A stretch of DNA of 5,626 nt from a virus (Duplodnaviria > Heunggongvirae > Uroviricota > Caudoviricetes): the IMG/VR virus record IMGVR_UViG_2778261201_000002; one strand, given 5' to 3'. The position numbers and the translations under genes were made by a program. The stretch's first letter is position 1. The number at the start of each line of letters is the position of its first letter. Below, in pieces: positions 1-5,626 of this stretch. The notes under the pieces were generated by a model. That model saw only the letters and a list, made by a program, of their open reading frames with translations. It was not told the origin of the DNA and searched no databases.

Positions 1-219
1 TTACATCCACATAATTTGCTGCCCTGATGGCAACGGGTGCGGCCTTACGGCGTGGACTTCTCCCGGCTTCACGATATATCGCTGTACCGACTCATAAGTG
101 ATGAACGTAGCGCTGCAATTCACGTTCTGACACTGGTGATAACGCTCTTTTGTCGTGTCAGTGATATAGCGGCTTGTACGCGCATGTGCGGCATGCTGGC
201 ATAAAGGACAATGAAACAT
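1..219 (-). CDS. ogr: Late transcription activator Ogr (zinc-finger, Ogr/Delta family), 72 aa
   Basis: Translation from the internal ATG at 219 (MFHCPLCQHAAHARTSRYITDTTKERYHQCQNVNCSATF...QQIMWM) matches my recollection of P2 Ogr nearly residue for residue. It has the C-x2-C...C-x4-C zinc-finger spacing. A Shine-Dalgarno-like GGAAGAGGTG lies about 7 nt upstream of this ATG on the - strand. The in-frame upstream extension to 303 has no homology support. Confidence 0.9.
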   Translation of the reverse strand: MFHCPLCQHAAHARTSRYITDTTKERYHQCQNVNCSATFITYESVQRYIVKPGEVHAVRPHPLPSGQQIMWM

Positions 220-253
220 CGCGAGCACCTCTTCCGGTTTTGTTGATGGTGCC

Positions 254-282
254 ATTTTAGTTAATTTATCCTTACAAAACAA
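254..282 (-). promoter_or_regulatory. Candidate sigma70 promoter for ogr (-35 TTGTTT, 17-nt spacer, -10 TAAAAT on the - strand)
   Basis: Read by eye in the 80-bp gap between the D-fragment stop (300-302) and the ogr start (219). Hexamers and spacing are consensus-like. P2 ogr is known to have its own promoter. No experimental or computed support. Confidence 0.35.
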
Positions 283-299
283 ACAGATAAAATAAAACA

Positions 300-911
300 T
301 CACTCATCATCTTCTGTTTCGTACTCCACATCAGAAAGCCTGACCTCAAGCTCCAAGGACGTCGTGAAGCCGCTATTATTCAGAAAATGTGTCACCTTAG
401 TGATTGTCCAGTCCTGCTCGTCTATGACGCGCTTAAAGCCTGACACTTTGACCGGCATTTCCGTGTAAATATCTGCCCGACCAGTAGCCAGGCTGATGGA
501 GAACTCCGCAACGCCCCGTTGCAGTTTGTCCCACTTCGCCTGAGCGGCGCGCATAGCCTGGGCTTTTGTGGCATATACCGTGGTCAGGGCAAAAACGTTG
601 TCAGCTTCACCGGCCATGTATTCACCTTCGCGCGCTTCCGGTACTTTTGGCGCTTTCTTCTGCGTGACCGGTTTCGCTTTCGGGTGCTCCAGTGCGCGCA
701 GGTGTTTTTCTTTCTTTTTGCGTTTCAGTTTTACCTTCTGCTTTTGCGGCTTCGGATCTTTGGTGTGTAACCACTTTGCCGTTACGCCGGTATAGGCTCC
801 ACGGTCAGCAATCGCAAAATGATGACGATCGCCGTCGCTGCGGGTGATGGTGACCTGCGGGATTTTTTTACCGCTGGCCGTCACCCCCTGCCCCGCTTTG
901 AGAAACAGCAG
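300..911 (-). pseudogene. D: Tail protein D, C-terminal fragment of about 200 aa (full-length P2 gpD is about 387 aa)
   Basis: The - strand ORF ending at the stop at 300-302 sits immediately upstream of ogr on the same strand, as in P2. The translation (LLFLKAGQGVTASGKKIPQVTITRSDGDRHHF ... lysine-rich KQKVKLKRKKKEK ... EVRLSDVEYETEDDE) is gpD-like from memory. The first ~35 codons of the ORF track entry (GTG at 1016) look like antisense of the opposite-strand coding sequence, so the 5' boundary near 911 is approximate. Confidence 0.8.
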
Positions 912-1091
912 TTTGCTGAGATGGAAACCGCCTTTTCCGCACTTAAGCAGGATGTGACTGACAGGGCGGATGAAACCAGCCAGGCATTCACCCGCCTGAA
1001 AAACAGCCTCGACCACACCGAAAGTCTGACCCAGCAGCGCCGCAGCAAGGCCACCGGCGGTGGCGGTGACGCCCTGATGACGAACTGCTGA
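906..1091 (+). pseudogene. Probable capsid scaffold (P2 gpO-like) C-terminal fragment
   Basis: The + strand ORF ends 58 bp upstream of the N start, which is the position gene O occupies in P2. The last ~60 residues (QQFAEMETAFSALKQDVTDRADETSQAFTRLKNSLDHTESLTQQRRSKATGGGGDALMTNC) are charged and protein-like, whereas the upstream part of the same ORF is antisense to the D fragment. Identity is inferred from synteny; I do not recall the O sequence. The 5' boundary is approximate. Confidence 0.45.
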
Positions 1092-1149
1092 CCGGCGTCA
1101 GTCAGTCCGGGAAAACCTTCACGATTAACCCTTAATTTCAGGAAAAACT

Positions 1150-2223
1150 ATGCGCCAGGAAACCCGCTTTAAATTTAATGCCTATCTGTCCCGTGTTGCC
1201 GAACTGAACGGCATCGACGCCGGTGATGTGTCGAAAAAATTCACCGTTGAACCGTCGGTCACCCAGACCCTGATGAACACCATGCAGGAGTCCTCTGATT
1301 TTCTGACCCGCATCAACATTGTGCCGGTCAGCGAAATGAAAGGGGAAAAAATTGGTATTGGTGTCACCGGCTCCATCGCCAGCACCACCGACACCGCCGG
1401 TGGCACCGAGCGTCAGCCGAAGGACTTCTCGAAGCTGGCGTCAAACAAGTACGAATGCGACCAGATTAACTTCGATTTTTATATCCGCTACAAAACGCTT
1501 GACCTGTGGGCGCGTTATCAGGATTTCCAGCTCCGTATCCGTAACGCCATTATCAAACGCCAGTCCCTTGATTTAATCATGGCCGGTTTTAACGGCGTGA
1601 AGCGTGCCGAAACCTCTGACCGCAGCAGTAACCCGATGCTGCAGGATGTGGCGGTCGGCTGGCTGCAGAAATACCGCAATGAAGCCCCGGCGCGCGTGAT
1701 GAGCAAGGTTACTGACGAGGAAGGTCACACCACCTCTGAGGTTATCCGCGTGGGTAAGGGCGGTGATTATGCCAGCCTCGATGCACTGGTGATGGATGCG
1801 ACCAACAACCTGATTGAACCGTGGTATCAGGAAGACCCTGACCTTGTGGTGATTGTGGGGCGTCAGCTACTGGCGGACAAGTATTTCCCCATCGTTAACA
1901 AGGAACAGGACAACAGCGAAATGCTGGCCGCTGACGTCATCATCAGCCAGAAACGCATCGGTAACCTGCCGGCGGTACGCGTCCCGTACTTCCCGGCGGA
2001 TGCGATGCTCATCACGAAGCTGGAAAACCTGTCCATCTACTACATGGATGACAGCCATCGCCGCGTGATTGAGGAAAACCCGAAACTCGACCGCGTGGAG
2101 AACTACGAGTCAATGAACATTGATTACGTGGTGGAAGACTACGCCGCCGGTTGTCTGGTGGAAAAAATCAAGGTCGGTGATTTTTCCACACCGGCTAAGG
2201 CGACCGCAGAGCCGGGAGCGTAA
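1150..2223 (+). CDS. N: Major capsid protein, P2 gpN family, 357 aa, apparently intact
   Basis: Full-length ORF whose translation (MRQETRFKFNAYLSRVAELNGIDAGDVSKKF ... DFSTPAKATAEPGA) matches my recollection of P2 gpN in sequence and length. AGGA Shine-Dalgarno about 7 nt upstream of the ATG. Internal ORFs in other frames are treated as spurious. Confidence 0.93.
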   Translation: MRQETRFKFNAYLSRVAELNGIDAGDVSKKFTVEPSVTQTLMNTMQESSDFLTRINIVPVSEMKGEKIGIGVTGSIASTTDTAGGTERQPKDFSKLASNKYECDQINFDFYIRYKTLDLWARYQDFQLRIRNAIIKRQSLDLIMAGFNGVKRAETSDRSSNPMLQDVAVGWLQKYRNEAPARVMSKVTDEEGHTTSEVIRVGKGGDYASLDALVMDATNNLIEPWYQEDPDLVVIVGRQLLADKYFPIVNKEQDNSEMLAADVIISQKRIGNLPAVRVPYFPADAMLITKLENLSIYYMDDSHRRVIEENPKLDRVENYESMNIDYVVEDYAAGCLVEKIKVGDFSTPAKATAEPGA

Positions 2224-2226
2224 CCG

Positions 2227-2724
2227 ATGACGAGTCCCGCACAGCGCCACATGATGCGGGTCTCGGCAGCGATGACCGCGCAGCGGGAAGCCGCCCCGCT
2301 GCGACATGCAACTGTCTATGAGCAGATGCTGGTCAAGCTGGCCGCAGACCAGCGCACACTGAAAGCGATTTATTCAAAAGAGCTGAAGGCCGCGAAAAAA
2401 CGCGAACTGCTGCCGTTCTGGTTGCCGTGGGTGAACGGCGTGCTGGAGCAGGGCAAAGGCGCACAGGATGACATTCTGATGACGGTCATGCTGTGGCGTC
2501 TGGATACCGGCGATATTGCCGGTGCGCTGGAGATTGCCCGTTATGCCCTGAAGTACGGTCTGACCATGCCGGGTAAACACCGCCGCACCCCGCCGTACAT
2601 GTTCACCGAGGAGGTGGCGCTTGCGGCTATGCGCGCTCACGCTGCCGGTGAGTCTGTGGATATATCGTGGATGGCACATGCTGGTTCAGCGAAGAATCCA
2701 ACGATGCGGAAATTGGTCTTGTAG
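2227..2724 (+). pseudogene. M: Terminase small (endonuclease) subunit gpM, truncated: about 145 N-terminal residues then about 20 unrelated residues before a stop
   Basis: Starts 3 nt after the N stop, as in P2. The translation is gpM-like through ...AMRAHAAGESVD (about nt 2661) and then diverges (ISWMAHAGSAKNPTMRKLVL*). I recall full-length P2 gpM as about 247 aa, so this ORF is about 80 aa short. The ORF is open, so a truncated protein could still be made. Confidence 0.8.
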
Positions 2725-3431
2725 CCTGGCCGGTTATCACCGGCATCAATGCCATCATCGCGGCAGCAGGCGCAATGGGGGCAATCTTCACGACGGTTGG
2801 TAGTGCCGTTATGACGGCCATCGGGGCGATTAGCTGGCCGGTTGTGGCCGTGGTGGCTGCAATTGTCGCCGGGGCGTTGCTTATCCGTAAATACTGGGAG
2901 CCTGTCAGCGCATTCTTTGGCGGTGTGGTTGAAGGGCTGAAAGCGGCATTTGCGCCGGTGGGGGAACTGTTCACGCCACTGAAGCCGGTGTTTGACTGGC
3001 TGGGCGAAAAGTTACAGGCCGCGTGGCAGTGGTTTAAAAACCTGATTGCCCCGGTTAAAGCCACACAGGACACCCTGAACCGTTGCCGTGACACGGGCGT
3101 CATGTTCGGGCAGGCACTGGCTGACGCGTTGATGCTGCCGCTTAATGCGTTCAACAAACTGCGCAGCGGTATTGACTGGGTACTGGAAAAACTCGGGGTC
3201 ATCAACAAAGAGTCAGACACACTTGACCAGACCGCCGCCAGAACTCAAGCCGCCACGTATGGCAGCGGTGGTTATATTCCGGCGACCAGCTCTTATGCAG
3301 GCTATCAGGCTTATCAGCCGGTCACGGCACCGGCTGGCCGCTCTTATGTGGACCAGAGTAAAAACGAATATCACATCAGCCTGACGGGTGGTACTGCGCC
3401 GGGGATTCACACGCTCAATACGCGGCCATAA
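2662..3431 (+). pseudogene. Tail tape-measure protein (gpT-like), C-terminal fragment
   Basis: The ORF track entry 2667..3431 opens with GTG, not ATG, and sits where gene L should follow M. The translation has long Ala/Gly/Val/Ile-rich hydrophobic segments (AWPVITGINAIIAAAGAMGAIFTTVGSAVMTAIGAISWPVVAVVAAIVAGALLIRKYWEP), then amphipathic stretches and a Gly/Ser/Tyr-rich tail, which is typical of tape-measure C-termini. Family assignment is by composition and context, not a remembered exact match. Confidence 0.6.
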
Positions 3432-3587
3432 ACGACGCTGAAAAGTGGATGTGAGGAAATAAAACCCGTGCATCTGATTATAATAATCACATGTATCCTG
3501 CCAGCGAGGAACGGCAAGATGCTTACCAATTATCCGGCGCATAGCTGCTGGCTGTTTTTCAACGAGATTGAGCGTCATCACTGTCAT
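3213..3587 (-). CDS. Hypothetical protein; possibly a 5' gene fragment reading through a rearrangement junction (only the first ~52 codons lie outside the antisense of the tape-measure fragment)
   Basis: ATG at 3585-3587 overlaps the TGA stop of the upstream small ORF (ATGA arrangement). A GGAGGG Shine-Dalgarno lies 7 nt upstream on the - strand (plus-strand ccctcc at 3595-3600). The N-terminal translation is MTVMTLNLVEKQPAAMRRIIGKHLAVPRWQDTCDYYNQMHGFYFLTSTFQRR. From about 3431 down to the stop at 3213 the frame runs antisense through GC-rich coding sequence, where long open frames arise by chance. Confidence 0.3.
   Translation of the reverse strand: MTVMTLNLVEKQPAAMRRIIGKHLAVPRWQDTCDYYNQMHGFYFLTSTFQRRLWPRIERVNPRRSTTRQADVIFVFTLVHIRAASRCRDRLISLIACIRAGRRNITTAAIRGGLSSGGGLVKCV
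3471..3493. repeat. 23-bp near-perfect palindrome CATCTGATTAT-A-ATAATCACATG
   Basis: Seen directly: 11-bp arms around a central base with a single mismatched pair. It lies just past the end of the tape-measure fragment, in the zone where GC-rich late-gene sequence gives way to AT-rich sequence. Confidence 0.35.
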
Positions 3588-3754
3588 TTCCATACCCTCC
3601 GGCTTTTCAGAAAGGTCAGAGCCTTCTTTAACGGACTCTGTTTTTTGGTGCGGATAATGATTCCCTTACGCCCCTTACCGTGGGTGATGGTGAAGTCAAT
3701 CGCCTTGGGGCTTTCATTACGCAATAACTGAGCAATACAACGAGGCTCGTTCAT
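3584..3754 (-). CDS. Hypothetical small basic protein, 56 aa (MNEPRCIAQLLRNESPKAIDFTITHGKGRKGIIIRTKKQSPLKKALTFLKSRRVWK)
   Basis: ATG at 3752-3754 is preceded by AAGGTGGAAAGG immediately after the cox stop. The product is Lys/Arg-rich and protein-like, and the ORF is the second gene of the cox-led leftward operon. Longer in-frame starts (TTG 3844, ATG 3841, 3820, 3781) would overlap cox and lack a good Shine-Dalgarno. Function not recognised. Confidence 0.4.
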   Translation of the reverse strand: MNEPRCIAQLLRNESPKAIDFTITHGKGRKGIIIRTKKQSPLKKALTFLKSRRVWK

Positions 3755-3764
3755 CCTTTCCACC

Positions 3765-4121
3765 TTAAGCCGCACGGCCATGTCTTGATTTGCTGTAACT
3801 AATGCGATTTTTCCAGTCATGCCATTCTGTCGGAGCTTCATCAACTAGTTGGGCTGCGTACTTGTCCCACTCACGGCGATTAATCCATAACTCAGCATGA
3901 CCGCCCGGCTTTAATGGGTCCGTCATATAAAAGGCTGGTAACTTGCCTGCTTTCGCCATTTCAGCAACAGCACGAGGCGTCTTACCGATGTAAAGAGCAA
4001 ATCCCTCTTTCGAGAGCAAATCCGACGGTGCGGCTGCAAGTTTGATGTCACATTTTTTACTTTTTGTGAGATCAGATACTTTTTCTCCAACATCGTTATT
4101 CATTTCTGATCCAATACTCAT
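3765..4121 (-). CDS. cox: Cox-like excisionase / early-operon regulator, 118 aa with the ATG at 4121
   Basis: Divergent from and adjacent to the C repressor gene, as in P2. The core (EGFALYIGKTPRAVAEMAKAGKLPAFYMTDPLKPGGHAELWINRREWDKYAAQLVDEAPTEWHDW) aligns by eye with P2 Cox (FAKLIGKSTGAVRRMIDKGKLPVIDMTDP...EYW...W...L...DGW). GAGGA Shine-Dalgarno 7-8 nt upstream of the ATG at 4121. The ORF track start at 4151 is TTG and is not favoured. Confidence 0.75.
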   Translation of the reverse strand: MSIGSEMNNDVGEKVSDLTKSKKCDIKLAAAPSDLLSKEGFALYIGKTPRAVAEMAKAGKLPAFYMTDPLKPGGHAELWINRREWDKYAAQLVDEAPTEWHDWKNRISYSKSRHGRAA

Positions 4122-4225
4122 TTTGATATCCTCAACTTTGGTGCCATTCAACCAGAGCTATTTGAAGCCGCTCTGCGTTGTTCTGGCGTGTCGCATGCAA
4201 CATAAATTACGAGATACGACAATTC
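4122..4225. promoter_or_regulatory. Divergent early/lysogenic promoter-operator region between cox and C (Pe/Pc equivalent)
   Basis: 104-bp gap between divergently oriented cox and C starts. On the - strand there is a consensus -35 TTGACA (plus 4227-4232, overlapping the C start codon), a 17-nt spacer, and a -10-like TAATTT (plus 4204-4209), which could drive cox leftward. A rightward promoter for C is less clear (possible TTGTTC at 4178-4183 and TAAATT at 4203-4208). An imperfect tandem 10-mer tctgcgttgt/tctggcgtgt at 4172-4191 is a candidate operator. All read by eye. Confidence 0.5.
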
Positions 4226-4537
4226 ATGTCAAATACACAAATCACATCTCAAGCAGAGAAACTCGCACTTATTCGGGAGTCAGAAAGAATGACAAGGAAG
4301 CAAGTTGCTGAATTAACTGGAATTAACTACAACACCTATGCTGGATATGAGCAGGGAAAAGTAAAGATGTCTTTTGACGCAGGCATGAAATTTTTCAAGC
4401 CAGAAAGATTTCGCAAGTACCGTGACTGGTTCATGTTTGATGAAACTGATCCCGCTGGCGGACAAATAGCCCCGGCGCTCGCGCACATTGGGCAAGACTC
4501 AACAACCTTGCACCACTCAGACCAAAAGACTGGCTGA
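4226..4537 (+). CDS. C: Immunity repressor, P2 C family, 103 aa
   Basis: From the ATG at 4226 the translation (MSNTQITSQAEKLALIRESERMTRKQVAELTGINYNTYAGYEQGK ... GGQIAPALAHIGQDSTTLHHSDQKTG) resembles my recollection of P2 C (MSNTISEKIVLMRKSE...LADLTG...GQIAPALAHFGQNETT...SGQKTG). It has a helix-turn-helix-like segment and lies just upstream of int on the same strand, as in P2. The ORF track start at 4178 is TTG and adds residues with no homology. Confidence 0.85.
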   Translation: MSNTQITSQAEKLALIRESERMTRKQVAELTGINYNTYAGYEQGKVKMSFDAGMKFFKPERFRKYRDWFMFDETDPAGGQIAPALAHIGQDSTTLHHSDQKTG

Positions 4538-4575
4538 CGATTTATTCAGCATATGTGTGCAGTAAATGTACGAAA

Positions 4576-4594
4576 GAAAATTGCATTAATTTTC
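4576..4594. repeat. AT-rich inverted repeat GAAAATT-gcatt-AATTTTC in the C-int intergenic region
   Basis: Perfect 7-bp arms with a 5-nt loop, seen directly. No downstream T-run, so it is not a convincing intrinsic terminator. It could be a protein-binding site or chance in AT-rich DNA. Confidence 0.3.
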
Positions 4595-4630
4595 AAGTAG
4601 TAGAAGTAAACAGCGTCATCGGAGGGCTTT

Positions 4631-5626
4631 ATGTCTATTAAAAAGCTCGATGATAGTCGTTATGAAGTGGACGTCAGACCGCAGGGTGCAGATGGAAAAC
4701 GTATCAGGCGGAAATTTAAAACTAAAGGTGAAGCTCAAGCATTCGAACGTCATGTACTGGTTAACTACCACAACAAAGAGTGGCTGGAGAAGCCAGCCGA
4801 CCGCCGAACTCTTACAGAGTTGTTAGGCAGATGGTGGATATATCACGGAAAATCACATGAGCGTGGAGATATTGAACGGGGGCGTTTGACGACAATAATC
4901 GCCAAATTTGCAGAAATGGGAGTGTCCAGAGCTGACCAGCTAACAAAGAAAACGATAACTGATTATCGCGTTGTAATGATGAACGATGGTCTAAAACCAG
5001 CCAGCGTAAATCGGCATCTGGCAATAATGAGCGGGATGTTCACCAAGTTAATTGACGCCGGTGAATACCATTCTCACAACCCGTTCCGTGAGGTTAAGCG
5101 ATTACGTGAAGCTGTTACAGAAATGGCTTTTTTGTCCAGTGAAGAGATTACACGGCTGTTATCCATGCTCGATGGTGATGAATTAAATGCGACTCTGGTC
5201 TGCCTTTCTACTGGTGGACGCTGGAGTGAAGTGTCTAATTTAAAAGCTGAACACATCATTAACCAGATGGTTACGTTTATGAAAACTAAAAACGGAAAGC
5301 GCAGGACAATTCCCGTTTCGCAGGACCTGATTAAACGGATCAAGACCAAAAACTCAGGCAGGCTTTTTAATGCCAGTTACTACAAAGTGCGCAACGCTCT
5401 CAGGGAAGTAAAACCCGATTTACCTGACGGACAGGCAGTGCATGTTTTGAGGCATACATTTGCCACACATTTTATAATGAATGGAGGTAACATAATCACA
5501 TTGCAGCGCATCCTGGGTCATTCTAACATTCAGCAAACTATGACCTACGCACACTTTGCACCGGATTTCTTACAAGATGCTGTGACTCTTAACCCGGTGT
5601 CAGGAATGTCCATAATGCGTCCATAA
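4631..5626 (+). CDS. int: Tyrosine recombinase / integrase, P2 Int family, 331 aa, apparently intact
   Basis: Full ORF with a GGAGGG Shine-Dalgarno 4-5 nt upstream of the ATG. The N-terminus (MSIKKLDDSRYEVDVRPQGADGKRIRRKF) resembles P2 Int (MAIKKLDDGRYEVDIRP...GKRIRRKF). Catalytic motifs are present: TGGRWSE, HVLRHTFATHF, and LGHSNIQQTMTYAHF with the nucleophilic Tyr. It ends with TAA at the window edge, so any att site lies outside the window. Confidence 0.93.
   Translation: MSIKKLDDSRYEVDVRPQGADGKRIRRKFKTKGEAQAFERHVLVNYHNKEWLEKPADRRTLTELLGRWWIYHGKSHERGDIERGRLTTIIAKFAEMGVSRADQLTKKTITDYRVVMMNDGLKPASVNRHLAIMSGMFTKLIDAGEYHSHNPFREVKRLREAVTEMAFLSSEEITRLLSMLDGDELNATLVCLSTGGRWSEVSNLKAEHIINQMVTFMKTKNGKRRTIPVSQDLIKRIKTKNSGRLFNASYYKVRNALREVKPDLPDGQAVHVLRHTFATHFIMNGGNIITLQRILGHSNIQQTMTYAHFAPDFLQDAVTLNPVSGMSIMRP

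Follow-up and report, generated by a model that had tools for sequence, protein, structure and literature searches.

The window analysed herein, i.e. the whole stretch of 5,626 nucleotides, carries on its minus strand, immediately downstream of cox, two short open reading frames, ORF1 (3584-3754) and ORF2 (3213-3593), both of which were confirmed in the ORF list and in the sequence after an earlier note on this DNA had placed two translationally coupled genes of unrecognised function within 3213-3754. The pair is almost certainly composed of the P2 early gene orf78, in intact form, and the first 39 codons of the replication gene B, the latter joined through deletions to remains of other phage genes. 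The features of this locus and of the remaining part of the window are listed in Table 1.

Table 1. Features of the window in order of position (B', T' and the like are incomplete genes)
Feature	Position in window	Strand	Position in P2	Basis
ogr and 3' part of D	1-914		24254-23340	blastn
3' end of O, all of N, 5' part of M	915-2662		3845-5592	blastn
FI scrap, 55 bp	2658-2712		18657-18711	blastn
T', internal tape-measure fragment, gpT residues 555-786 of 815	2712-3405	+	21512-22205	96.1% identity to P2
ORF2 read-through tail, 63 codons antisense to T, stop at 3215-3213	3213-3405	-		blastn, translation
A scrap, 69 bp, codons 83-104	3404-3472	-	28346-28278	blastn, 98.6%
First 117 nt of B, orf78, last bases of cox	3471-3768		26574-26277	blastn
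B', first 39 codons of gene B (full length 166 aa)	3471-3587	-		39/39 aa identical to P2 gpB
orf78, intact P2 early gene of 56 codons	3584-3754	-		55/56 aa identical to P2 Orf78; phrog_273
GGAGGG, ribosome-binding site of B, inside 3' end of orf78	3595-3600	-		direct sequence reading
AAGGTGGAAAGG, Shine-Dalgarno-like, before orf78 ATG	3755-3766	-		direct sequence reading
cox, 118 aa, heading the early operon	3765-4121	-		Pfam Phage_Cox, E 1.6e-29
C, immunity repressor, 103 aa, intact, divergently transcribed	4226-4537	+		phrog_147, E 2.9e-36

Genes and junctions downstream of cox

ORF1 starts with the ATG at 3754 and ends after 56 codons with the TGA at 3586-3584. The strong Shine-Dalgarno sequence that had been ascribed to it, AAGGTGGAAAGG (3766-3755), is indeed located directly 5' of this ATG, and starts within the cox stop codon, TAA at 3767-3765. 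The DNA of the ORF1 and ORF2 regions is 96-98% identical to annotated P2 genes, so the two reading frames are not chance features, and megablast of the segment 3150-4250 against phage records placed the P2 features 'orf78' and 'B: gpB' under 3471-3754. The ORF1 protein differs from P2 Orf78 (AAD03300.1) by a single residue, the conservative change R17K at a variable column of the family, and was matched over positions 1-56 of 56 to phrog_273 by the PHROG scan (E 2.8e-40). Every residue that is invariant in the 40-sequence alignment of the Orf78 family, i.e. P4-L11 (PRCIAQLL), H25, G26, R29 and G31-I34 (GIII), is present in the protein of the window. The location agrees with the family as well: orf78 is flanked by cox and B, and its stop codon shares bases with the start codon of B in the sequence ATGA (3587-3584). 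In P2, orf78 is likewise a 56-aa gene that follows cox after 10 nt, carries the same ribosome-binding sequence and overlaps B by ATGA; in the P2 record, orf78 is at 26291-26461 and B at 26458-26958, giving the same four-base overlap. Besides R17K, the gene in the window differs from that of P2 in standing behind a heteroimmune cox, whose product is 35% identical to P2 Cox.

The ATGA overlap had been pointed out earlier, and is formed by the ATG at 3587-3585 and the orf78 stop codon. This ATG is the second one of the listed reading frame: the mechanical list starts ORF2 at the ATG at 3593 (126 aa), and the ATG at 3587 opens a frame of 124 codons. The GGAGGG that the earlier note had given to ORF2 was found at 3600-3595, 7 nt upstream of the ATG at 3587. 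From this native start, ORF2 is identical in residues 1-39 to P2 gpB (AAD03301.1; phrog_235, E 8.3e-20), annotated as a replication protein required for lagging-strand synthesis, and the start codon and the ribosome-binding site are those of P2. In contrast, gpB residues 40-166 are gone, and are replaced in the window by 22 gpA codons and 63 antisense gpT codons: homology to B stops at 3471 (codon 39), whereas the gpB homologue is of 166 aa in all 34 loci compared below. The segment HGFYFLTSTFQRRLWPRIERVN of ORF2 represents gpA residues 83-104, in frame and with 22 of 22 residues identical, and ORF2 also matched phrog_91 ('nicking at origin of replication') in the PHROG scan.

The proposal that ORF2 may be a truncated gene was thus correct in that it carries the N-terminus of P2 gene B, cut after codon 39. 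The estimate of about 52 codons of its own, however, must be revised to 61 sense codons before the antisense T sequence (39 of B plus 22 of A), and where one probable junction had been assumed, a junction is present but not a single one, since B is joined to A at 3471-3472 and A to T at 3404-3405. The B/A joint shares the 2-bp microhomology TG, with the frame kept, and the A/T joint shares the 2-bp microhomology TC. Such 2-bp microhomologies are typical of illegitimate recombination. ORF2 reads as a pseudogene of B, and not as the B gene, because the N-terminal part of gpB with its native start is preserved and the protein is incomplete. The B'::A'::anti-T product would be non-functional, because 127 of the 166 gpB residues are missing, and is unlikely to carry out the replication function of gpB.

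On the opposite strand, orf78 and B' are overlapped by an antisense ORF of 87 aa (3468-3731, plus strand). A shorter version of this ORF (70 aa) was called on both of the two public contigs that carry the window, on one of them in place of orf78, and is probably a gene-calling artefact.

Segments, relatives and occurrence of the window

The window as a whole (1-5626) is made up of P2-like segments, at least seven in number, which meet at five internal junctions, adjacent segments overlapping by 0-5 bp. Relative to ogr-D' and the early region, the block O'-N-M'-FI'-T' (915-3405) has the opposite orientation, and two small scraps, one of FI (55 bp, 2658-2712) and one of A (69 bp, 3404-3472), are placed between the larger pieces. 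Apart from orf78, the full-length genes are ogr (1-219; 72/72 identical to P2), the major capsid gene N (1150-2223; 357 aa, 99.4% identical to P2), cox (3765-4121), C (4226-4537) and int (4631-5626), all others being truncated. The high identity to P2 ends at 3768/3769, just within the 3' end of cox and one base before its stop codon, and from 3769 onward the cox, C and int proteins are only 35%, 48% (47.6% for C) and 53% identical to those of P2. Because P2 identity stops at this point and a heteroimmune cox-C-int set lies beyond, we place a mosaic boundary of the immunity module at the cox/orf78 border; the cox gene, annotated as 'Cox family DNA-binding protein' in E. coli genomes, is not of the P2 immunity type.

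The closest relatives on this side are the prophages of E. coli TK3887, APEC O1 and NCTC9104, integrated at the same site in pflA, with which int-C-cox-orf78-B' is 99.5-99.9% identical. The C gene has zero nucleotide differences from that of the TK3887 prophage. In TK3887 the prophage is intact: int, C and cox are followed by orf78 (171 nt), B (501 nt), four small genes and the gene of the replication endonuclease, A, the order of early genes being cox-orf78-B-orf80-83-A, and over 3471-5626 the window is 99.8% identical to it. The A scrap matches TK3887 1703 bp further on, which sets the size of the B-to-A deletion at 1703 bp. In contrast to the window, which lacks these 1703 bp from B codon 39 to A codon 83 and also most of the other phage DNA, the three prophages keep full-length B, orf80-83 and A. 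Two of the only four differences from TK3887 over 2156 bp fall within the 171-bp orf78, at 3705 and 3727, the former giving R17K; these numbers are too few to interpret. Beyond A in TK3887 (positions 1-836 of the retrieved locus), where P2 has tin and old, lies a gene for a SIR2 family protein, and this position is likely a defence-cargo slot.

The arrangement occurs in nature. The whole window was found at 100% identity in the draft assembly GCA_002468195.1 (contig NMNV01000009.1) and in the Logan assembly of SRR3726206, in both cases between pflB and pflA, with the insertion in the 5' end of pflA. It is a rare, strain-specific remnant, because the full arrangement is absent from all 5426 complete E. 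coli genomes and the 24-mer across the B/A junction has no exact match among the GTDB species representatives. A record of the chimeric M' product (165 aa) exists for two contigs. The remnant is flanked by a 13-bp direct repeat, GTCAGTTATTGGT, representing pflA codons 2-5 (5650 and 11491 of NMNV01000009.1, in the flanks of the window). Phage DNA on the int side gives pflA a new ATG and a 20-codon N-terminal extension (PflA called as 265 aa, MSNLTNC...ATK-SVIGR), and the former start of pflA has been left behind on the ogr side. E. coli H5 and H6 carry a decayed P2-like remnant (ogrK, D, C, int) at the same pflB-pflA attachment site, in which ogr and int-C are likewise retained; it differs from the window in its deletion pattern, having no cox-orf78-B', no N and a full-length D. 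The H6 remnant (NZ_CP010170.1, 3228760-3231917), with ogrK, full-length D, a 62-aa hypothetical gene, C and int, is an independent one.

This distribution bears on the idea that the chimera B'(1-39)-A'(83-104)-antisense-T has arisen as a new functional gene, which might, for instance, supply a dominant-negative gpB peptide against superinfecting P2-like phages. Its N-terminus is identical to gpB, the reading frame passes through the B/A junction unbroken, and it still has the native ribosome-binding site and the coupling to orf78. Against this, however, the exact 126-aa product is without any record in the gene collection, gene callers called ORF2 on neither of the two public contigs (orf78 was called on one), the C-terminal 63 residues are antisense read-through, and the operon should stay off under the intact C repressor. 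Selective retention of the chimera is unsupported, since the arrangement is known from two contigs and from none of the 5426 complete genomes, and we consider a new functional gene to be very improbable.

Conservation of orf78 and its coupling to B

A search of 5.8 billion proteins yielded 185 relatives of Orf78. Among the matches listed, all were short (40-96 aa) and those with names were hypothetical or uncharacterised every time; the hosts include Escherichia, Citrobacter, Klebsiella, Salmonella, Enterobacter, Edwardsiella and others. In an exhaustive profile search of 1.84 billion representative proteins, no more than 32 representative clusters of small proteins were found for the family, and none with an informative domain fusion. 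In the alignment of 40 sequences, with identity down to 57%, a total of 15 columns are invariant and the C-terminus is variable.

We then compared 34 loci from species-representative genomes of Enterobacterales, from Escherichia to Serratia, Pectobacterium and Rahnella. In all 34, an orf78 homologue is followed by a homologue of the 166-aa gpB, the start of which overlaps the orf78 stop by 4 or 10 nt, and the frame and the length of Orf78 (55-65 aa) are kept throughout these many genera. Among phage records, B is present in 76 and orf78-B DNA in 75. For 25 ungapped conserved codons from 26 sequences, picked for gap-free alignment, nucleotide diversity was 0.155, 0.108 and 0.521 at codon positions 1, 2 and 3, respectively, and the median dN/dS was 0.07, a ratio biased downward because the blocks were selected for aligning without gaps. 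From the coupling in 34 of 34 loci, the near-equal numbers of phage records and the dN/dS of about 0.07, it follows that orf78 is a constrained core partner of B, and not variable cargo.

Other readings of the pair were weighed against these data. The earlier note had considered the pair as accessory cargo gained downstream of cox, such as a regulator, an anti-defence factor or a toxin-antitoxin-like pair, and both the small size and translational coupling of the two ORFs, with the first being very basic, and the lack of a described function for Orf78 would suit this idea. ORF2, however, can be shown to consist of a piece of B with A and antisense T attached, so that cargo is effectively refuted for this half of the pair, and the intact relative has full-length B after orf78. 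No toxin, antitoxin or defence model of PADLOC, Pfam or NCBIfam was matched, and ORF1 is the core gene orf78, which accompanies B too regularly, both in the loci and in the phage records, for the variable cargo that a comparison across related prophages might have uncovered. Cargo as an explanation of the pair is thus hardly credible. The same counts speak against a moron or anti-defence gene, of which patchy presence would be expected, and a type II toxin-antitoxin module is rejected, as neither product matched a toxin or antitoxin family in these scans, ORF2 is a B/A/antisense-T chimera and the partner in intact relatives is the 166-aa gene B.

The remaining proposal, that ORF1 is a conserved non-coding DNA or RNA element, a leader or spacer that merely delivers ribosomes to B, fits with its very short length, its overlap with the B start, the lack of a described function and the lack of domain matches. 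Nevertheless, most of the variation lies at third codon positions (0.52, compared with 0.11-0.16 at the other two), the dN/dS is low, the invariant columns are amino-acid columns (PRCIAQLL and GIII among them), frame and length are maintained, and nothing in the window matched Rfam; a purely non-coding element is therefore most improbable. As judged by its sequence family, these data show Orf78 to be a real protein under strong purifying selection and obligatorily coupled to gpB.

Two points of the earlier note fare differently in the light of this identification. The two products, which had not been recognised, are known ones, ORF1 being P2 Orf78 and the N-terminus of ORF2 being gpB; that no function was recognised still holds for Orf78, the function of which is given as 'unknown' (PMC3091744), and our literature search on Orf78 gave nothing beyond tables with this entry. 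As ORF1 is clearly homologous to a P2 early protein and ORF2 to the start of an early replication gene, the outcome that the earlier note had named as refuting its reading applies, and the pair is a truncated early operon of the ordinary kind.

History, expression and possible role of the pair

The locus is the 5' portion of an early (Pe) operon of the P2 type, cox-orf78-B, within a decayed and rearranged prophage. A deletion of 1703 bp cut B after codon 39 and joined it in frame to the 69-bp A scrap; by a second illegitimate join, the A scrap became attached to the inverted fragment of the tape-measure gene T, and as a consequence of this join the ORF2 frame extends by accident through 63 antisense codons to its stop. 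An in-frame B'-A' joint is expected by chance in one of three cases; the ORF that results has 124 codons and a good ribosome-binding site. The region 3213-3754 is thus ordinary decay of a scrambled prophage and not new cargo: both genes are already annotated in the P2 reference genome, the remainder is deletion scars, and there is nothing new downstream of cox, so that the finding in itself matters little. The locus is nevertheless of use as a clean, base-resolved case of prophage decay by illegitimate recombination, with 2-bp microhomologies and scraps of 55-69 bp.

In the P2 switch, C represses the early promoter. Since the cognate C repressor gene is intact in the window, the cox-orf78-B' operon would normally be silent. 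The ribosome-binding sites of cox, orf78 and B' are retained, and upon firing of the early promoter both Orf78 and a junk fusion of 124 aa could be produced. A promoter and terminator scan of the window gave no more sites than shuffled sequence, and the early promoter was not identified by it.

With respect to the role of Orf78, gpB is a protein that interacts with the host helicase DnaB. Orf78 is very basic (pI 11.5, with 15 K+R in 56 residues), and its AF2 model is a helix-hairpin-helix of only moderate confidence (pLDDT 73.6, pTM 0.38). The protein matched nothing in Pfam, NCBIfam or PADLOC; neither as a single sequence nor as the 40-sequence profile did it find a relative in PDB (best E 0.46-0.6, which is meaningless), and the model had no structural neighbour in BFVD by Foldseek (best E 1.3). 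It is a narrow, strongly constrained family without a recognisable fold, always translationally coupled to gpB. From the invariant stop/start overlap, the co-occurrence with B and the strong purifying selection, we tentatively propose that Orf78 might assist gpB in P2 DNA replication, as a small and strongly basic accessory protein that is produced at a constant ratio to gpB. A stronger proposal, that P2 replication depends on Orf78 as a co-factor not described so far, or that Orf78 acts on the host, with its intact survival in this otherwise shredded remnant reflecting a benefit to the host, is improbable, and nothing suggests co-option either of Orf78 or of the 124-aa fusion. Orf78 is a reasonable small target for P2 replication studies, on account of the strong purifying selection and the obligatory coupling to gpB. 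As to the intact state of ogr, N, cox, C and int within the same remnant, it may reflect selection or, alternatively, the young age of the remnant.
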